From IMG/VR virus record IMGVR_UViG_3300011813_000035, positions 62,001-126,000 of that record: DNA of 64,000 nucleotides; one strand, written 5' to 3'. Position numbers and translations under genes: made by a program. How positions within the stretch are numbered: the stretch's first letter is position 1; each line of letters begins with the position of its first letter. Source of the DNA: an uncultured virus (IMG/VR IMGVR_UViG_3300011813_000035). Lineage: Duplodnaviria > Heunggongvirae > Uroviricota > Caudoviricetes. This document shows, piece by piece, positions 55,648 to 64,000 of the stretch. The notes below the pieces were generated by a model that saw only the letters and a list, made by a program, of their open reading frames with translations, was not told the DNA's origin and ran no database searches.

Positions 55648-56778
55648 GTGAGCGAGTGCTACGAATTAACACTAACACAAAATTACGTTTCAGATTGGAC
55701 GTTTTGCGATGCAATTAGAGAACTTATTCAAAATGGCACAGATCAAGAAATATTAGATAATAGTAATGATTTTTCTATAAACTATGATTACAAAAATGAA
55801 ATATTAAGATTTACTAATTCTAAGTCAAAGCTAAGTATTAATACTTTACTATTGGGTAAAAGCAGTAAGAGTGACAATGACGATACAGTAGGACAATTTG
55901 GCGAAGGTTACAAGATAGCCGCACTTGTTTTGAATAGATTAGGAAAAACTTTTACAGTTTATAATAATGAGAAAAACGAAGTGTGGAAATCAAGTTTTAA
56001 AAACAGTGAAAAGTGGAGAGAAAAAATACTCTCATTTTATATTGAAAAATCTCCTACTAAGGACAAGGGACTAGTCATTGAAATTGGTAATGTGAGTAGT
56101 AGGGAGAATAATGATTTATATGACGTATGGCTTGGCTTCTATGACTTTGATGAATCTGAAAGAATCGAAACCACGTACGGAGACATTCTTTTATCAGAAG
56201 ATTTTAAGGATAGGATATTCGTAAATGGACTATCAATAAATTGTACTGAAGAAATGAAATATGGATATAATTTCAAGCCCAAATATATAAAGCTTGAACG
56301 TGACAGGAAAACGTGTGATAGCTGGCAAGCCAGGGATACAACATCGTTAATGATTGCAGAAGCCATGGTAAGAGGAAAAATGGAAATAGAAACTGTTAAA
56401 AGAATGGTCGAGAGTAATGTAAATGATGTTTACAATATGGATTTTAATGGTTACGAAAATAATGTAGTTGAAGTAAAGAATATGCTTATCTCAGAATTTG
56501 ACAAACAAAATCCTACATTATATTCAATACCTGTACAATCACAAGAGGATATCAATAAGGTTAAGGCGTATGGTGGAAATCCAGTAGTCGTGCCATCAAA
56601 GGTAGCGTCCTTACTAAAGCGAGAGACTGAAAAGAGAATAAATGAATTAGTTTCTCTCCCAGTTGAAAAGACACTTTCCCTAAGAGAAAAATTTCAGAGA
56701 TGGTATGATATTTACGCTAATAAGCTTGATACAACGCCTAAAAGTGAGTTGTCAGGATTGATTAATGAGATCCAGTAA
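55648..56778 (+). CDS. GHKL (HATPase_c) ATPase
   Basis: ELIQN..D, GKSSK, GQFGEGYK. Confidence 0.8.
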   Translation: MSECYELTLTQNYVSDWTFCDAIRELIQNGTDQEILDNSNDFSINYDYKNEILRFTNSKSKLSINTLLLGKSSKSDNDDTVGQFGEGYKIAALVLNRLGKTFTVYNNEKNEVWKSSFKNSEKWREKILSFYIEKSPTKDKGLVIEIGNVSSRENNDLYDVWLGFYDFDESERIETTYGDILLSEDFKDRIFVNGLSINCTEEMKYGYNFKPKYIKLERDRKTCDSWQARDTTSLMIAEAMVRGKMEIETVKRMVESNVNDVYNMDFNGYENNVVEVKNMLISEFDKQNPTLYSIPVQSQEDINKVKAYGGNPVVVPSKVASLLKRETEKRINELVSLPVEKTLSLREKFQRWYDIYANKLDTTPKSELSGLINEIQ

Positions 56779-56799
56779 TATTGTTGATAGGAGAAAATA

Positions 56800-57135
56800 A
56801 TGAAAACATATATTGATAATAACGTAAAAATTAATGGAAATGATTTCACTGACTACGACAGAGCTATTGAATACATAGGTAAAATAATGAAAAGAAATAA
56901 AAGTTATATATATCAATGTGATTACTGTGGCAAAAATTGTAAACATACTCCGGAGTTCATCCTTCCAGTCATTAAGTCAATTGAAACCTGTGCATATGGA
57001 GGACATAGAGGAGCTAAGTTGGCAACTGCTGTAGGAAGTATAATGGATAATGAACAGAGAGATATTTGTCCTAGTTGTCAAAAGAAACTTGCAAGGTTGG
57101 CGAGTTTGATACCTAATGTCATTCTTACGGAATGA
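56800..57135 (+). CDS. Zinc-finger hypothetical protein
   Basis: CDYC...CPSC. Confidence 0.65.
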   Translation: MKTYIDNNVKINGNDFTDYDRAIEYIGKIMKRNKSYIYQCDYCGKNCKHTPEFILPVIKSIETCAYGGHRGAKLATAVGSIMDNEQRDICPSCQKKLARLASLIPNVILTE

Positions 57136-57167
57136 AAGAGAGGTTTCATGACGGAAGGAGGGTATAC

Positions 57168-57449
57168 ATGTTCATTGAATCAGGAGAAGAAAGGGTATTG
57201 AAACCAATAGATATTGCATATATGACAGGAAAATCTAAAACACCGATCGATTATGATTTTAAAACTGAAAAAGAAATCTTGGATAATCTCGTGGCTGCTT
57301 GGAACGCATTTGTGAAACTTCCGGTTACTCACCCGATGGAATTAGGAGATTTTTGTGATGGAATACATAGATGTCAGTACGTGTTAATGGCGAGAGAAGC
57401 TAGGAGAAGCAGACCGGATATTTATCCTTTTAAAGAAAAAAATGAATGA
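57168..57449 (+). CDS. Hypothetical protein (start moved to ATG 57168)
   Basis: AAGGAGG RBS; bounded by palindromes at 57133 and 57458. Confidence 0.65.
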   Translation: MFIESGEERVLKPIDIAYMTGKSKTPIDYDFKTEKEILDNLVAAWNAFVKLPVTHPMELGDFCDGIHRCQYVLMAREARRSRPDIYPFKEKNE

Positions 57450-57491
57450 TTAACAGATAAAAGCGATGTTTCATGACAGAAAGGAGTTTTA

Positions 57492-57935
57492 ATGTTTAAT
57501 AAGTATTACACGGAAAACCACAAAACTACCAATAATACAACAAATATTTTTAATATTCCAGATGAATATATAATACATCATCGAAATCAAAATGATGATA
57601 TTGATAGACTTAAATACTACATCGAAAATGCAAGTGCTGTTGATAGTTGCGCGATATGGCTAGATGTTTTATATCCAATAACAAAGAAAATAAAGGATAG
57701 TGTAACTAATTATATCATGAGGGATTACAAAGGGGAAGAACATACTTTAACGATTTCCGTAAGTGAACCACAATTTGTCACGGCTCTTTCAATCCCAAAA
57801 ACAAGAGATTCGATGAGCGTAATTAGTAATAGTATACGAACACAGTTTAACATGAACAATTACATAATGGTAAATACGGATATATTTAACGGTGATTTTA
57901 AGATTGTAATTAGATTATTAGGTCGGATAGAATAA
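57492..57935 (+). CDS. Hypothetical protein
   Basis: AAGGAG RBS; bounded by palindromes. Confidence 0.65.
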   Translation: MFNKYYTENHKTTNNTTNIFNIPDEYIIHHRNQNDDIDRLKYYIENASAVDSCAIWLDVLYPITKKIKDSVTNYIMRDYKGEEHTLTISVSEPQFVTALSIPKTRDSMSVISNSIRTQFNMNNYIMVNTDIFNGDFKIVIRLLGRIE

Positions 57936-57960
57936 TACATTCAATTAAGAGGGAGATAAA

Positions 57961-58209
57961 ATGTTAAATATTTTTAAAAAAGGTCATGAAACGCTTACAT
58001 CTGATATTGATACATGGGTAGTTAGATGGAATAGGAGATATGGAGATTTTAGTGGAAGTTATGAGAAAACAGCACAATTTTTTACAGATAAAAGTGAAGC
58101 TCTTAGATTTCAAGAAGAATTAAAACGTGCCATTAAATTGTTAGGACATACCGCGTCTCACTTAACAGATGTACGGTGTGAAAGAGTTAAGAAAAACAGT
58201 TGTGAATAA
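57961..58209 (+). CDS. Hypothetical protein
   Basis: GGGAG RBS; bounded by palindromes. Confidence 0.65.
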   Translation: MLNIFKKGHETLTSDIDTWVVRWNRRYGDFSGSYEKTAQFFTDKSEALRFQEELKRAIKLLGHTASHLTDVRCERVKKNSCE

Positions 58210-58244
58210 AACAAACCTTTCAAATAGAATGGAGGTGATTTTAA

Positions 58245-58576
58245 ATAGAAGGAGCGTGTAGTAACCAAGTTGTAAAATGCATTATTTATACTAATGATTT
58301 AGAACTGGGAAGAAGTAAACTGAAAGAAATTGAAAAAGATAAAGGGTCACAGGAATTTATATCATTAAGAAGATCAGATCCCAGTATAACAACGAGACAA
58401 TATTCGATGACGGAGAAGAATGGATCACAGTAAAGCCTAACAATGGAGCAAGGGGATATAGGTGGAGAAAAGCATGGATAGATGTCAAGACCCCTTATGA
58501 ACAGCTTACAACATGTGTGCTACCATATGGAGATTGGTATAGGTGGGAAGATCCAAAGTATTTTAATTGGGATTGA
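58245..58576 (+). pseudogene. Frameshifted hypothetical gene (or sequencing error)
   Basis: GGAGGTGA RBS plus ATA. Two overlapping frames (58245-58433 and 58343-58576) fill one palindrome-bounded unit. Confidence 0.45.
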
Positions 58577-58757
58577 AATCAACATTTGAAAGGAGAAAAT
58601 TACGTGAGCAAAGTTAGGTTGGCTGGTATGAGAGTAGGAACTACCGGAATCCTGGGTGCTGTTTTGAATATGTGTAACAAAGGAAAGAGTGTCTCTGACA
58701 TTAAAACGTTCTGTGAAACATCATTAAATTTAGACGGTATGAAGGAGGATAAATAAT

Positions 58758-59027
58758 ATGGAATTAAATGAATATTGGTCTGCACAAGCAGTGGAGGAAT
58801 ATAAAAGCATGTTGTATGAACAGAAAATGCAACACTATGGTTTAGCCTGTGAATTACAGGCACCACACGTAATTCATAATGCAGAAATAAAACAAGATGG
58901 AGATATGTGGTGTTGTATTTTGGGTGATCTGCCTACGGGTGTCGTCGGATTTGGAAAAACTCCGAAAGAAGCATGTGATGAGTTTGATATAGTTTGGCAC
59001 GAAGGATATAAGACAACCAAACAGTAA
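58758..59027 (+). CDS. Hypothetical protein with a HicB-like C-terminal motif
   Basis: AAGGAGG RBS; 'GVVGFGKTPKEA'. Confidence 0.6.
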   Translation: MELNEYWSAQAVEEYKSMLYEQKMQHYGLACELQAPHVIHNAEIKQDGDMWCCILGDLPTGVVGFGKTPKEACDEFDIVWHEGYKTTKQ

Positions 59028-59045
59028 ATTGAAGGGAGATGCAAA

Positions 59046-59378
59046 GTGGAACAAAGTAGGAATAGGGTTAAAAAATTAAACGATACTTCAGACTACAAGT
59101 ATGCGGCAAGACAATATAAAGATTATTCAATAGCGAAAGAAATTGAGTCGGATCTTAAAGTAATGGTATATGCGATTTTGGGGAGTAAAAAAGATATAGA
59201 CGTTCAAAGCTCAAAGACCCCAAGTTGTTTTGGAGTCGTAGGGAAGGAACCTAAATATTATTGGTTTGCCTATATCAAGCCAGGTGGTTATATGTTCTTA
59301 GCAGAGTCTGAAATCGAATTATATTGTAACATCATTGCTAAAATTGTTGGGAATAGACTGTATATACCATTCAGTTAA
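59046..59378 (+). CDS. Hypothetical protein
   Basis: GGGAG RBS. Confidence 0.6.
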   Translation: MEQSRNRVKKLNDTSDYKYAARQYKDYSIAKEIESDLKVMVYAILGSKKDIDVQSSKTPSCFGVVGKEPKYYWFAYIKPGGYMFLAESEIELYCNIIAKIVGNRLYIPFS

Positions 59379-59424
59379 TAACGTTAAAACGGAAGTTTTA
59401 TAGCTCAACAGGTGACAAGGTAAA

Positions 59425-59446
59425 CAAAAAAGGCGACATGATCGCC
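59425..59446 (-). terminator. Intrinsic terminator of the RT operon
   Basis: GGCGA-loop-TCGCC followed by T6 on the - strand. Confidence 0.7.
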
Positions 59447-59449
59447 CAA

Positions 59450-60400
59450 TTATTTTTCTTTAGAAAACTTATATAAATTCTGATATTGACCAGGATTGAC
59501 TTGACGAATGGCAGTTAGTAATCCTTGAAGACGCTTCTTAGATTTTTCTGGATTTAATTTTAGCTCAGTTAATTCATGTATTACCTTAAGGCGCATTGAG
59601 TTTCGAGGTATGGGATTTCCATTCCTGTCAAGAACAACTCCAGTAATAAGTTTTGGATAATTCTTGGTATACGTTTTAACTTTTGACTTGGAAATCATAT
59701 AATGATATTTTGTTACTATTTTATTAACCATAGTTTTAAATCGATAATTAATTTTATTAGCACAAGAAAATGTTACATCGTCGGCATATATTGTCATAAC
59801 TATATTATTTTTAGAAGATAGATTATATAATTCATCAAACATTGGTCTATTTACTAAGTATGATAAAATTGGGCTGGCTGGAGAACCCGTTGCTAAATGG
59901 TTTGAATTTTTTAATTTCTTTTGCATATAAAAACTTTCAACTTTATCAACATTTTTTAAGGGACACAAAGTTAAATCAACTGTTGTTAAGTTGGTAAGAA
60001 TATTTGCAATATCAGGGGAGGTTTTGAGTTCATTAATAAAAAATAAATAGACATATTCTCGAGGTATACATGGGAAGAAAGCTGTTAAATCAATTTTATA
60101 TACATACTTATTCCCTTTATGGATTAATGCGTTATCATAATATGATTTACCTTTAACACCTGAAAAAACATAGTTTGGAACTTTTATTTGACTTAATTGA
60201 GATTTGAGCGATCTTTGAATTTGTTTGACACTGTAAGATGGCGCTTCAACCAATCTTGGTTTAGCTTTCGTATCAATGTAGATATTGTATTCCATTGCAA
60301 TATCTTTTTGATTAAAACTATTCTTATTTGTAATCTTTAATAAGTACCTTAAAGATTTTTTTGACTTTAAGTTATATATTTTACAGTTTGTATAATTCAT
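59450..60400 (-). CDS. Retron-type reverse transcriptase
   Basis: D...FF, TGSP.SP, YADD; retron region X NAxxH (NALIH) and region Y VTG-like (ITG); 316 aa, no maturase or endonuclease domain. Confidence 0.9.
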   Translation of the reverse strand: MNYTNCKIYNLKSKKSLRYLLKITNKNSFNQKDIAMEYNIYIDTKAKPRLVEAPSYSVKQIQRSLKSQLSQIKVPNYVFSGVKGKSYYDNALIHKGNKYVYKIDLTAFFPCIPREYVYLFFINELKTSPDIANILTNLTTVDLTLCPLKNVDKVESFYMQKKLKNSNHLATGSPASPILSYLVNRPMFDELYNLSSKNNIVMTIYADDVTFSCANKINYRFKTMVNKIVTKYHYMISKSKVKTYTKNYPKLITGVVLDRNGNPIPRNSMRLKVIHELTELKLNPEKSKKRLQGLLTAIRQVNPGQYQNLYKFSKEK

Positions 60401-60430
60401 ACAAACACTCCTTGCTTTTTAGTGCTAGTA

Positions 60431-60655
60431 TCAATCCTTAACAATCTCATATAATAACTGGATGAAACGAGATAGGGTTTTAGGATCAACGTGTGGTGCA
60501 ATCAGTGATACGATAAGTAAAGCAACAATGAAGAGTAGTAGTGCTACTATTAACTGACCCAAATTAATATTGTAATTATTATTAATGGTACAATTGGTCA
60601 AGTTGGTCTGATTGTTGCTAAAAATTTGTGGATTTTTATCATCCGGTTTTTTCAT
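60431..60655 (-). CDS. 74-aa membrane protein; candidate retron effector/toxin
   Basis: AAGGAGGTGA RBS, Asn-rich N-terminus, ~20-aa TM helix, amphipathic tail. Confidence 0.75.
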   Translation of the reverse strand: MKKPDDKNPQIFSNNQTNLTNCTINNNYNINLGQLIVALLLFIVALLIVSLIAPHVDPKTLSRFIQLLYEIVKD

Positions 60656-60659
60656 AATT

Positions 60660-61004
60660 CACCTCCTTGTTATTATTGGCTCCATATGGAGTCTCCCAAT
60701 CCATTAATAACAAAGAGATACATAACCTTGCATCACTATACTAGCACAAAACTTACTCCCTATTTTTTTCTATAGGAGATTAAAATTTCAAAACCAACCG
60801 ATTACCTTTTCATTGATGACATAGTCCTACGAACAAACACTTCGCACCGCACCTTTTCCGATACCCGGGGGAGGTACAATCATCTCGTCTCCACTATTGT
60901 CGTCGAAAGGGATTGGGGTTTTAAAAATACTCAGAAGGCTCTGAGTAGCATTCATGTTGGTAGCATGAACCATATTGGGAGAAATCTGGTTATTATTCAC
61001 TGAC
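60660..61004 (-). ncRNA. Retron msr-msd-like ncRNA
   Basis: 9-bp inverted repeat 60974-60982/60692-60700, two short 5' hairpins (60950-60970, 60928-60947), long stem 60790-60825/60893-60922. Confidence 0.7.
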
Positions 61005-61010
61005 ATGGGC

Positions 61011-61039
61011 ATTATATCATATTTTGGAAAAAACATCAA
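61011..61039 (-). promoter_or_regulatory. Sigma-A promoter of the retron cassette
   Basis: TTGATG-N17-TATAAT with extended -10 TG. Confidence 0.8.
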
Positions 61040-61066
61040 TTAAAATTGGGATTTTAAAGGAGGGTT

Positions 61067-61600
61067 ATGACAGATAAAGAAAGAATATTAATGACAATAA
61101 TTACTAGAATAATTCCAGGCTTGATGTATTGTGGTAATTCATATGAAAAGAGAGAAGAATATGTTAAATCATATATGCTTGATACGGCTGGACTCGAAAG
61201 TGGAGATCTAGTATTTGCGAATACATCAATCTATCCGAATGATTTTATAGTAGGGTTTATTCACGAAATTAAGCCTGATTGTATCGTCATAAGAGAAATC
61301 GGGAGCGATAGATTGTGTAATTACTATAATGAAATGTTTACAAAAATCAACAAAGACAAACTTGGATATGAGATATTGGAAGGAGTTCAATATAAAACAT
61401 ATCATAAGGTATTAAAAGCTTTTAGCGATTATGCAAGTTATGCAACAAAGTTTAAATATATTTCATTTGACGAAAACACGTGCACTGTCCAGTCAAGAAT
61501 AATGTTTTCAGATGAAATCAAGTATGAAATAAAATTTAAATATGATAGTAAAACCACTATTAAGAGTATTGGAAAACTAATTAAAGAAAAGGAGGTTTAA
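61067..61600 (+). CDS. Hypothetical protein
   Basis: AAGGAGG RBS after the palindrome at 61041. Confidence 0.7.
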   Translation: MTDKERILMTIITRIIPGLMYCGNSYEKREEYVKSYMLDTAGLESGDLVFANTSIYPNDFIVGFIHEIKPDCIVIREIGSDRLCNYYNEMFTKINKDKLGYEILEGVQYKTYHKVLKAFSDYASYATKFKYISFDENTCTVQSRIMFSDEIKYEIKFKYDSKTTIKSIGKLIKEKEV

Positions 61601-62227
61601 ATGGGGTATAAGGATATTTTGGGCAGAGAACTCCACGACGGAGATATTTGTGTCGGAAAAGGAACGGGTAGAGATGTATGTGGAATGGACGTTGGTATAT
61701 GGTCTGGCAAATCTATTGCATTTAAGGGCGGAAATAAACGTTCAATGGGAGATGTATTTCTTGTAGTAAATCCAACAGAAGAAGAACTGACAATTAAAAG
61801 TGATATTGAAAAATCTTTAATTGAAAGCGAGAACAAAAGACTAGAAAGAGATTCTGTAAAAACAATACCACTAAGTAAACTTGAAGTTGGTGGAATATAT
61901 GAATGTAACAATAATTACTTGTACCTGTATTTAGGAAAACGCAAAGTCACATTTAAAAATCTACAGTATAAAAATTCTGATCCTAAAGTTCAGGAGGGAC
62001 ATTGCTTTGTTTTTGCTTGCGGATCTGATGACGAAAAAATAAAGAAAGATATCGTTGAAATTGGAACGTATCATGGAAATCATAGAATAGAAGTATTGAA
62101 GGGAAATAAGAAACTCACAAAACTAATTCGCAAGATTGATTTAGAGTTCCCCATGGTTAATGAGGTGCATAGCGAAGGATACCTCAGATATAGTCCAAAT
62201 TATCATTATGAATTAACAGTAGAATAG
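61601..62227 (+). CDS. Hypothetical protein
   Basis: AAGGAGGT RBS. Confidence 0.7.
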   Translation: MGYKDILGRELHDGDICVGKGTGRDVCGMDVGIWSGKSIAFKGGNKRSMGDVFLVVNPTEEELTIKSDIEKSLIESENKRLERDSVKTIPLSKLEVGGIYECNNNYLYLYLGKRKVTFKNLQYKNSDPKVQEGHCFVFACGSDDEKIKKDIVEIGTYHGNHRIEVLKGNKKLTKLIRKIDLEFPMVNEVHSEGYLRYSPNYHYELTVE

Positions 62228-62261
62228 CTTTAAAATTTAACATTCATTCGCGAAGTGGGAG

Positions 62262-62522
62262 GTGACTGTTATTAATTATGAATTATATAGAAGACTAATT
62301 ATGATTGCAATAGACGGGGAAAGGTATGAAATATATCTTTATTGTAACAAATCGGACTTTCATCTGTTTGATGAGATGTTACAGAATTGTAAGTTCTTGT
62401 ATGTAAGGGATTTTGAAATACACTACAAAGATCCAAATTATGTTTATAAAATAAATAACACTTCGGGTGTCGTGCAAATAAATATGAATTGCATAAGAGA
62501 ATATTATTATGAACTGATTTAA
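62262..62522 (+). CDS. Hypothetical protein (start uncertain)
   Basis: Bounded by palindromes at 62231 and 62520. Confidence 0.55.
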   Translation: MTVINYELYRRLIMIAIDGERYEIYLYCNKSDFHLFDEMLQNCKFLYVRDFEIHYKDPNYVYKINNTSGVVQINMNCIREYYYELI

Positions 62523-62552
62523 AAGTGTAGATTCATATGGAAAGGAGTAGCC

Positions 62553-62780
62553 GTGGTAATTGGAAAAATTGTAAATAAGCAGACTAATCAAGATGTATGT
62601 CAGAATTACTTAAATAAAGAATTAAGAGATTTTGAAGCAAATATTGGAGAAGATTTAAAAATCATCTACACAAATGGGTCATTCTTTACTCACGAAAAGG
62701 TGTTAGAGTGTGACCAAGATGATTATGGATTTTGGATTGAGACTACTAATAAATTATGGAGAATTGATAACCATACATAA
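62553..62780 (+). CDS. Hypothetical protein
   Basis: AAGGAG RBS; bounded by palindromes at 62520 and 62778. Confidence 0.6.
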   Translation: MVIGKIVNKQTNQDVCQNYLNKELRDFEANIGEDLKIIYTNGSFFTHEKVLECDQDDYGFWIETTNKLWRIDNHT

Positions 62781-62878
62781 ATGCATTGTTTCATAAATCT
62801 AAGATAAGCATTAATGGCTTGTCGTCTAACAAACAACAATCCCAACAATTTTACAATTAAATATAGGAGGCAAAGAAC

Positions 62879-63079
62879 ATTAAAGGAATTATTTACGCCG
62901 AAGATTTAGCTATGGAATTATTAAAACATCCCAAGGCTCTGGTTTGTGCTGGCAAAATGGGATCAGATACATATAGAAATGACAGGAAAATAGAGAATAT
63001 ATTTTTGAGAGACGGAGATACCCTCGTCTTAAGTATTGATGATTATTGTACCAATGGAGAATTAAAATATTTCAAATAG
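62879..63079 (+). CDS. Hypothetical protein, probable ATT start
   Basis: AGGAGG RBS, 66 open codons. Confidence 0.45.
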   Translation: MKGIIYAEDLAMELLKHPKALVCAGKMGSDTYRNDRKIENIFLRDGDTLVLSIDDYCTNGELKYFK

Positions 63080-63094
63080 AAAGGAAAGTAGTAA

Positions 63095-63679
63095 ATGCAA
63101 ATAAGCAACGTAAATGTTTATGGATTAGAAAATGCCATTAGGGTTAGCAAGTTTCCTATGGCAGTAAACGTTGAAGACTGTACATGTGAAACAATCAAAA
63201 CAACATCAAAATTAGGGTCGTGCAAATCAGGCAGTGGTCATGATAATTATATAAAAGGGATCATCGTACAGTTTGATATGAGATTCAGTAACAAGATGTC
63301 CGTGGAACTTGAAAGATACCACTTCATTGATTTCATATCTAGTCAGTCAACTATGCATCGTATTACAAAATTCATGCTTGAAGATCAATGTAATGAATTT
63401 GTAGATCAGAGAGTTATTGATATTGTCCAGGAAATGATTGATGTCTATAACGGATTAGAAGATAAGGGCACTGAATTTGCCAAGGATCTATATTTAAGAA
63501 TTTTATATAATATCCCTTCAGGATTTGAATTAACCGCTGGATTCACAACAAATTACCAGCAATTGAAAACAATCTATTGGCAGCGTAGAAATCATCGGCT
63601 CCCTGAGTGGCGAGCGTTCTGTAAATGGGTAGAAACTTTGCCAAAGTTTGGAGAATTAGTATTGGGAGGTGAAAAATAA
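63095..63679 (+). CDS. ThyX-like (FAD-dependent thymidylate synthase-related) phage protein
   Basis: 'ELERYHF....SSQSTMHR' and 'QRRNHRLPEW'; the canonical RHRx7S motif is degenerate. Confidence 0.6.
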   Translation: MQISNVNVYGLENAIRVSKFPMAVNVEDCTCETIKTTSKLGSCKSGSGHDNYIKGIIVQFDMRFSNKMSVELERYHFIDFISSQSTMHRITKFMLEDQCNEFVDQRVIDIVQEMIDVYNGLEDKGTEFAKDLYLRILYNIPSGFELTAGFTTNYQQLKTIYWQRRNHRLPEWRAFCKWVETLPKFGELVLGGEK

Positions 63680-64000
63680 TTGATCGTTATTTTAGGAGAG
63701 AGTGCTAGTGGTAAATCCACAGTGCAGGATATCTTATGTAAAAATTATGGATATGTAAGACTAATTACATACACAACAAGAAGCCCAAGAGAAGGCGAAG
63801 AAAACGGAGTAGATTATCATTTTATTTCAGAAGATACGTTTGAAGAAATGAGCAGAAAAGGAGAGTTCTGTGAAACGGCAGAATACAATGGTTGGCACTA
63901 TGCAACTGCGAAAGCTGATTGTACTGATAATAAAGTAGTCGTACTTACACCCCACGGACTAAGGCAGATGAAAAAATTTGATGAACTTACTCTTGATGCT
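63680..64000 (+). CDS. gmk: Guanylate kinase-like protein (runs off the window end)
   Basis: TTG start after GGAGGTGA; GESASGKS, YTTRSPREGE..GVDYHF. Confidence 0.85.
   Translation, partial: MIVILGESASGKSTVQDILCKNYGYVRLITYTTRSPREGEENGVDYHFISEDTFEEMSRKGEFCETAEYNGWHYATAKADCTDNKVVVLTPHGLRQMKKFDELTLDA

Follow-up and report, generated by a model that had tools for sequence, protein, structure and literature searches.

An RNA hairpin over the Shine-Dalgarno sequence of a small protein in an HTH-less, phage-associated Type VI retron lineage of Clostridia

Described Type VI retrons and the two-gene cassette

Among the closest described systems is Retron-Vpa2 of the Proteobacterium Vibrio parahaemolyticus, which according to the available part of the text of Zhang et al. 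2025 (bioRxiv 10.1101/2025.10.22.683967) encodes a small protein (SP) that is toxic on its own and whose ribosome binding site (RBS), together with the start codon, lies in stem-loops. This SP is translationally repressed in the hybrid RNA and needs msDNA, which suffices when given in trans; deletion of the non-coding part is toxic, an HTH protein represses reverse transcription, and a basal low level of reverse transcription proceeds without translation of the SP. The Vpa2 msDNA (86 nt) consists of a 63-nt long stem-loop and a 23-nt 5' stem-loop with a 7-nt repeat that is needed for activation. The same authors described conserved 7-nt direct repeats, found in the msd loop at the msDNA's 5' end and in the loop of the riboregulator, proposed that they pair, and stated in their discussion that how the cDNA opens the translation lock of the toxin is an open question. 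For Retron-Sen3 (Type VI, cl2075 lineage), the accessible portion of Garcia-Rodriguez et al. 2026 (bioRxiv 10.64898/2026.04.27.721009) reports a two-helix SP and ssDNA that are both made constitutively, the SP being restrained by the HTH protein and activation being uncoupled from ssDNA levels; it locates the ncRNA's 3' terminal inverted repeat at the RBS of the SP, and finds the HTH gene in ~78% of Type VI entries. Because the Sen3 SP is constitutive, control at the RNA level is not universal in Type VI, and the Vpa2 logic of cDNA as the trigger cannot be assumed for another lineage.

The window, i.e. the whole stretch of 64,000 nt that was analysed, carries one compact minus-strand operon, which runs from a promoter through ~350 nt of non-coding RNA and the SP ORF to the reverse transcriptase (RT) gene and an intrinsic terminator, with the following features.

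61011..61039, minus strand: promoter (-35 TTGATG, 17-nt spacer, TG-extended -10 TATAAT; transcript start at ~61005)
60974..60982, minus strand: a1, the 5' arm UCUCCCAAU, complementary to DR1 and to DR2 (inverted repeat I15)
60970-60950 (SL1) and 60947-60928 (SL2), minus strand: msr-like stem-loops, the second followed by a U-run (MFE and centroid folds)
60787..60926, minus strand: candidate msd (DNA template), a long imperfect hairpin in the variable stretch of the family alignment (from folds)
60756..60778, minus strand: small hairpin CUCCUAU/AUAGGGAG, its 3' strand being the direct repeat DR1 (core GGGAG, 60760-60756)
60738..60751, minus strand: IR1, 5' half of the long-range pair on either side of the lock and SP ORF (I2, 14 nt, 93%)
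60701..60720, minus strand: anti-SD (blocking) strand, UAUCUCUUUGUUAUUA plus UGG (folds, family alignment)
60692..60700, minus strand: DR2 (a2 of the initial annotation), AUUGGGAGA, unpaired within the lock's internal loop
60680..60691, minus strand: inner hairpin CUCC-AUAU-GGAG, structure kept and sequence variable in relatives
60660..60679, minus strand: SD strand CCAAUAAUAACAAGGAGGUG, with the Shine-Dalgarno sequence (SD) at 60668-60660
60431..60655, minus strand: SP, 74 aa, AUG at 60655
60418..60431, minus strand: IR2, 3' partner of IR1, beginning at the SP stop codon
59450..60400, minus strand: retron RT, 316 aa, YADD motif, with its own SD at 60413-60408
59431..59447, minus strand: intrinsic terminator ending the operon, a 7-bp stem followed by TTTTTGTTT

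The promoter is the top promoter-like site of the region (10/12 with the TG) and its block TTGA...TGATATAAT aligns among relatives, as do the positions of both SL1 and SL2; the long hairpin at ~60926-60787 would be the natural candidate for the DNA template. The Rfam scan of 59000-61500 at a permissive threshold gave nine weak matches only (E 2.5-9.5, all well under the gathering scores). A 70-aa ORF within the ncRNA (60827-61039), with no family match and located in the variable region, was judged spurious.

The initial annotation took the cassette for a retron, and the profile HMM search, on which alone the type assignment is based, agrees: the RT matches PADLOC RT_VI best (2.6e-69, 231.6 bits), the next model, RT_III-A, scoring 136.3 bits. 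The Pfam search identified RVT_1 only, the four family members tested also have RT_VI as their first PADLOC match, and the RT_IV model is absent among the best 25 of the 37 PADLOC matches of the RT. Relatives of the RT are plentiful in gut and other metagenomes and sparse in reference genomes: 376 proteins match it at E <= 1e-20, one metagenome scan yielded 356 tblastn-confirmed relatives (best 80 of 356 retained), and others occur in 7 IMG/VR contigs (~50% identity), in 2 Clostridia MAGs and in 3 out of 398 further genomes from the same class. Altogether 93 loci with RT identity >=40% were examined, the window included, 7 of which lacked enough upstream DNA, leaving 86 usable.

In the classification of Mestre et al. 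2020, the RT falls into the Type VI clade and the SP ORF is located between the ncRNA and the RT, as in that type; a Cro/C1-type HTH gene adjoining or overlapping the RT was not found. That the cassette has no HTH gene had been pointed out in the initial annotation, and it is true of the whole lineage, as none was detected at the window cassette or in 85 related loci. The SP stop codon precedes the RT start by 30 nt in the window, and an SP-like ORF ends 30-38 nt ahead of the RT in 85 of the 86 loci (L010 being the sole exception), a gap which leaves no room for an HTH gene between the two; the 13 neighbouring ORFs gave no Pfam family match and no detectable HTH. Thus, the lineage encodes neither the HTH repressor of reverse transcription that belongs to Retron-Vpa2, nor the HTH antitoxin that accompanies the constitutive SP and ssDNA of Retron-Sen3, so that the Sen3 mechanism, as far as its available description goes, cannot apply here as described.

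The SP comprises a polar N-terminal part, a hydrophobic helix (aa 32-52) and an amphipathic helix (aa 58-73). The AlphaFold model of the window's SP exhibits the same two helices (mean pLDDT 64, 73-83 over the helices), which agrees with a putative two-helix membrane-active peptide; such a peptide would probably be toxic. Homologous ORFs of 57-75 aa were found in 85 loci, and the 47 distinct SPs share the N-terminal MKKADKP, a polar stretch, ~20 hydrophobic residues in one segment and, at the C terminus, an amphipathic segment resembling CCPELLxDFVRW. The SP has no match to any Pfam, PADLOC or PHROG family, and the word-based homology search with its sequence retrieved only itself and one 99% copy, the other relatives having been found via synteny with the RT. 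The SP of Retron-Sen3 is likewise described, in the available text, as a two-helix protein; unlike the SP of Retron-Vpa2, the one in the window possesses a hydrophobic helix of ~21 residues, with no sequence similarity to other SPs detected. Type IV retrons (Retron-Eco6/Ec48) reportedly couple the RT to a small membrane-spanning effector, which is the combination seen here.

The host, unlike that of Retron-Vpa2, is a Clostridia-class bacterium or its phage. Among sequencing runs, three metagenomic DNA runs of a single study contain the stretch, as contigs, and no RNA run is listed for it. The flanking genes are located on the plus strand, and three of them match PHROG families.

55648..56778, plus strand: phrog_6077 match (PHROG)
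57132..57449, plus strand: phrog_13916 match, annotated 'DNA ligase' (PHROG)
63095..63679, plus strand: phrog_6721 match (PHROG)

Across 55648-64000 the cassette is the only minus-strand unit amid phage-like plus-strand genes, and the translation of the plus-strand ORF at 63680-64000 starts with a P-loop-like GESASGKST. The cassette looks like an inserted defence unit within phage-like DNA. No third conserved gene was found in the flanks of ~2.5 kb, where no cluster of ORFs is common to more than 5 of 34 loci. Genes for one RNase HI-type protein and one RNase HII-type protein are present in the genome, so that, judging from these, RNase H-dependent steps would be possible. Two weak RT-like matches (E 5e-8 to 2e-4, 27-31% identity) occur elsewhere in the same genome (G000:C3:6981-7595 and C22:30568-31164).

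The analysis thus adds a two-gene, HTH-less, phage-associated Clostridial lineage of Type VI with a membrane-type SP, and a lock that carries one of two co-varying repeats matching the 5' arm of the retron. In the available texts of Zhang et al. 2025 and Garcia-Rodriguez et al. 2026, no HTH-less Type VI lineage appears, Firmicutes and Clostridia are not mentioned, and RNase H figures as a methods step only. The lock family is common in gut Clostridia and their phages, and the HTH regulator, central to the Vpa2 and Sen3 models, appears dispensable in nature.

The hairpin and its conservation

The hairpin burying the SD of the 74-aa ORF, which had been read from the window in the initial annotation, is real. 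Its arms were found by the repeat search as an inverted repeat (60663-60679 with 60701-60717; 17 nt, 88% complementarity; I1), and the 71 nt from 60720 to 60650 fold with -24.5 kcal/mol, versus -11.28 +/- 2.76 kcal/mol for 200 dinucleotide shuffles (z -4.79), none of which was as good. The basal stem of the lock comprises 16 bp (60720-60705 with 60675-60660), and the entire SD AAGGAGGUG (60668-60660) is paired. In the MFE fold DR2 (60700-60692) falls wholly within the internal loop, adjoined by the inner hairpin (60691-60680), and overlaps no pair. Any competition between a1:a2 and the lock, as suggested earlier, would therefore be a topological one (crossing pairs, i.e. a pseudoknot) and would not arise from an overlap of a2 with the paired strand, from which it had been deduced.

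Conservation in homologs had been set beforehand as a test of the hairpin. The 83 loci with the exact anchor SD word have RTs of 47-56% identity; their leaders reduce to 34 distinct sequences, in every one of which the anti-SD strand folds onto the SD (-21.3 to -38.4 kcal/mol); the same hairpin is present in 2 further loci with the variant SD ACGAGGAGG. The computed unpaired probability of GGAGG in the 34 leaders has a mean of 0.02 (maximum 0.17) in the full leader and a mean of 0.48 (minimum 0.21) with everything 5' of DR2 removed. The anti-SD strand is nearly invariant among the leaders although it is non-coding, and the basal stem hardly varies on either strand, the changes being mostly to or from wobble pairs; since most of its pairs never vary, covariation neither proves nor disproves this stem. 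In L013, L020, L023, L032 and L036 the 5' arm of the lock contains an additional U, with a corresponding additional A in the 3' arm. RNAalifold, run on the MAFFT alignment, recovered the basal stem and mis-registered the inner hairpin because of length variation, and the latter was judged from single-sequence folds: it is represented by 31 distinct segments in the 34 leaders, most of which still fold as a hairpin abutting GCCA. Two subfamilies of leaders differ in the layout of the junction.

In the exceptional, more distant locus L010 (G229:C226; 41% RT identity), an open frame of 367 aa covers the RT match and no separate SP ORF was found, yet a similar anti-SD/SD arrangement is visible ~400 nt upstream of the RT; it may be a fused or otherwise organised form.

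Repeats that connect the hairpin with the retron RNA

The a1/a2 pair was found by the repeat search as a perfect 9-nt inverted repeat (60692-60700 with 60974-60982; I15). Two more perfect inverted repeats of 9 nt (I12, I13) occur within the same 701 bases, so that the pair is unremarkable on its own and its support stems from the related loci. There, DR2 has a counterpart in DR1, which is located just 5' of IR1, 63 nt upstream of DR2 in the window and 63-71 nt in relatives; in the window's family it occupies the stem of the small hairpin or adjoins it, and is outside the loop. The DR1 and DR2 sequences agree over a median of 8 nt (5-10) in relatives, a1 complementing a median of 6 nt only. The two repeats change together among subfamilies (11 distinct strings, e.g. 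UGGGGAGU, UAGGGAGA, UUGGGAGA and GGGAAGUC), and a1 co-varies with them (ACUCCC versus GACUUC). The internal loop leaves DR2 unpaired in all 34 leaders, at a distance of 6-8 nt from the anti-SD arm. Co-variation extends, in several relatives, to the sequences next to a1 and DR2: the window has AAU 3' of a1 with AUU 5' of DR2, and L022 has GGU with ACC.

In the window, a1 forms the better duplex with DR2 (9 contiguous bp, -14.3 kcal/mol, versus -11.7 kcal/mol for a1:DR1). Among the 34 leaders, the stronger a1 duplex is formed with DR1 in 22, with DR2 in 9, and is a tie in 3; in the GGGAAGUC subfamily, a1:DR1 has as many as 10-12 pairs. When upstream partners of the DR2 zone are ranked, the a1 zone comes first in 21 of the 34 leaders and within the top three in all of them. 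Compared with shuffled a1, the a1:DR2 energy is not significant for most loci, <=7 of 200 shuffles having reached it in only 3 of 34 relatives, and the mean duplex energies of cognate and non-cognate pairs (-10.4 versus -9.6 kcal/mol) differ too little for use. The base of the candidate msd hairpin (60907-60917, CCCAAUCCCUU) is complementary to 60695-60705 (AAUGGAUUGGG), which overlaps DR2 (11 nt, 91%; I9); this third possible partner of DR2 in the window was not seen in L001.

A second long-range element, the IR1/IR2 clamp (60751-60738 with 60431-60418), brackets the lock together with the SP ORF. It is kept in 33 of the 34 leaders, with compensatory changes on both sides (e.g. GUGCUGGUG/CACCAGCAC, GUGCUGAGG/CCUCAGCAC and GUGCUAGUAU/AUACUAGCAC). 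IR2 was also considered as an a1-like arm with a branch site and was ranked low, there being no G within 7 nt after IR2 in the window's family.

The cassette resembles Retron-Vpa2, as described in the available text, in the Type VI RT, in the msr-msd and SP ORF residing on one transcript, in the SP RBS lying in a stem-loop, and in the three-arm fold of the hybrid RNA, reproduced here, in which the SP region folds back with its 3' end onto the first arm. Vpa2 also carries direct repeats, in its msd and its riboregulator, to which DR1 and DR2 of the window might correspond. With Retron-Sen3, in the accessible part of its description, the cassette has in common the IR1-IR2 type of pairing around the SP ORF and an SP RBS sequestered in the ncRNA fold. 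Hence two features of the Vpa2 and Sen3 hybrid RNAs are found in the window, an SP RBS within a leader stem and a long-range inverted repeat that extends from the msd arm past the SP stop.

Thirteen canonical SP-HTH-RT loci were compared with this family (18 RTs of distant IMG/VR loci, covering all 13, have RT_VI as their first PADLOC match). Most of the 13, read by eye, show the order anti-SD, loop repeat, hairpin, SD, and single-sequence folds recover the anti-SD:SD stem in only some of them. In 10 of the 13, according to the script's list or by eye, a GC-rich hairpin whose loop contains the repeat precedes the SP start by ~100-130 nt, and in at least 6 IR1 follows within ~4-22 nt after that hairpin (by eye); a long-range inverted repeat past the SP stop was also seen. 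In four canonical loci checked by hand (L100, L099, L122 and L137) a 5' UCGCC motif is complementary to the GGCGA motif in the loop of the lock. In L099, L100, L104, L116 and L124, directly behind the SP stop, the 3' arm of the long-range repeat ends with a conserved CCCUAG followed by UUUC, a motif absent from the window's family.

How the hairpin might be opened

With moderate confidence, the hairpin can be regarded as a 'riboregulator', a lock on translation within the hybrid RNA of a Type VI retron, for which cDNA from the same retron is the most likely opener. The anti-SD strand keeps the SP RBS in a 16-bp stem, and the SP would thereby not be made. One promoter would give one transcript with a1, two msr-like stem-loops, the variable template hairpin, the lock, the SP, the IR1/IR2 clamp and the RT; by analogy with Retron-Vpa2, the lock would be opened by the product of reverse transcription accumulating during phage infection, and the freed SP would presumably arrest the cell. 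In type I toxin-antitoxin folds and synthetic toehold switches, too, translation of a small toxic membrane peptide is prevented by an anti-SD stem in cis, which a nucleic acid or a processing event then opens; unlike in those cases, the presumed opener here is a DNA product of the RT that the transcript itself encodes. As there is no HTH protein, the RNA lock and cDNA turnover would be the main brake, and for the same reason the restraint on the RT is a weak point of the lock model.

In the canonical retron types, the msDNA is reported to act as the antitoxin, and the effector is said not to be embedded in the retron RNA. The initial annotation regarded the cDNA instead as the trigger, and mentioned a similar logic proposed for Type VI retrons. 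This is correct: cDNA-dependent derepression of a hairpin-locked SP is already known from Retron-Vpa2 (bioRxiv 10.1101/2025.10.22.683967, available text), hence the logic is not new; the trigger role has this published model on its side and the constitutive SP of Retron-Sen3 against it.

The in silico evidence is split between two routes by which the cDNA could act, both of them possible. By one, priming would occur at DR2 inside the lock and the anti-SD strand would be the first template copied; by the other, priming would occur upstream, near DR1/IR1, and the cDNA copy of DR1 would pair with DR2 in the lock, in which case the blocking strand is never copied. The exact mechanism proposed in the initial annotation, namely a1:DR2 priming, copying of the anti-SD strand (60701-60720) first and release of the SD in cis by RNase H, we consider unlikely. 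Copying of the blocking strand first depends on a2 being DR2, and is favoured by the stronger a1:DR2 duplex in the window, by the co-variation of the a1 and DR2 flanks, by the unpaired state of DR2 in every leader and by the rank of the a1 zone among the partners of DR2; the 3' terminal repeat of the Sen3 ncRNA at the SP RBS (bioRxiv 10.64898/2026.04.27.721009, accessible portion), the UCGCC/GGCGA complementarity in the four canonical loci and the host genes for RNase HI-type and HII-type proteins point the same way. However, a1:DR1 is the better duplex in most relatives, a1:DR2 is mostly indistinguishable from shuffled a1, its pairs cross those of anti-SD:SD to form a pseudoknot, and the resulting cDNA would have ~220 nt (60701 to ~60925), compared with 86 nt for the Vpa2 msDNA. 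By position, the latter would rather fit, in an analogous RNA, a cDNA whose synthesis starts directly behind the DR1 hairpin and leaves the anti-SD strand uncopied. Moreover, in the Vpa2 preprint basal reverse transcription proceeds without SP translation and msDNA in trans is enough, which argues against a switch operated purely in cis by RNase H.

Opening in trans, which we put forward tentatively and still regard as somewhat unlikely, would involve priming just 3' of DR1, at the DR1 or the IR1/IR2 duplex, and a free cDNA that carries or adjoins the DR1 complement, pairs with DR2, destabilises the lock and possibly guides RNase H, the anti-SD strand never being copied. The identity of DR1 and DR2 (8 nt), kept at a fixed spacing of 63-71 nt, exceeds what a1 requires (6 nt), as expected if a cDNA copy of DR1 must pair with DR2. 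The pairing of exactly such repeats has been proposed by Zhang et al. (bioRxiv 10.1101/2025.10.22.683967, available text), and the placement of the repeat in the loop of the GC hairpin in 10 of the 13 canonical loci, with IR1 shortly after it in at least 6, fits the same scheme. Yet a loop hybrid of 8-10 bp alone does not melt a stem of 14-16 bp, and DR1 in the window's family is found beside or in the hairpin stem and not in a loop, its identity with the Vpa2 repeat being itself conjectural.

SD-sequestering stems are common ahead of small toxic peptides, and the hairpin could also be a constitutive damper only, keeping SP translation low while activation takes place elsewhere, post-translationally or by RNA processing, independently of the RT. 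The constitutive SP of Retron-Sen3 and the uncoupling of its activation from ssDNA levels, as given in the accessible text, would suit such a damper. On the other hand, the lineage has no antitoxin-like partner gene among its flanking ORF clusters, and the co-variation of DR2 with two distant elements of the retron RNA is needless for a plain damper; we consider this explanation rather improbable. Similarly little probability is given to an RNA that constitutes the whole control circuit, in which a1 would toggle between DR1 and DR2, DR2-primed reverse transcription would unwind the anti-SD stem, the first ~16 nt of cDNA would copy the SD strand, and escaped cDNA would bind the anti-SD arms of other transcripts, which RNase H would destroy catalytically. 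If true, such an RNA-only circuit would be an all-or-none suicide switch without a protein regulator, fed by cDNA that escapes host nucleases during infection.

To return to the hairpin as a lock opened by cDNA, the system, pared to two genes and one RNA, is a minimal setting for testing how this opening occurs, and the clean lock, a 16-bp anti-SD stem with the retron pairing motif in its loop, should make the rival mechanisms separable by a few point mutants.

Some further complementarities and signals were observed within the transcript. SL2 (60928-60947, minus strand), with the UUUUU that follows it to ~60920, has a terminator-like score, and relatives keep a hairpin followed by AUUUUU at this place; such a terminator could stop most transcripts ahead of the template and the SP, as an additional brake. 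The segment just upstream of a1 (60984-60996) has 85% complementarity over 13 nt with 60451-60463, at the 3' end of the SP ORF (I5), which may be a second end-to-end contact or a chance match. The anti-SD strand (60701-60713) has a second possible partner at 60576-60588 inside the SP ORF (13 nt, 92% complementary; I3), located in an AT-rich region.
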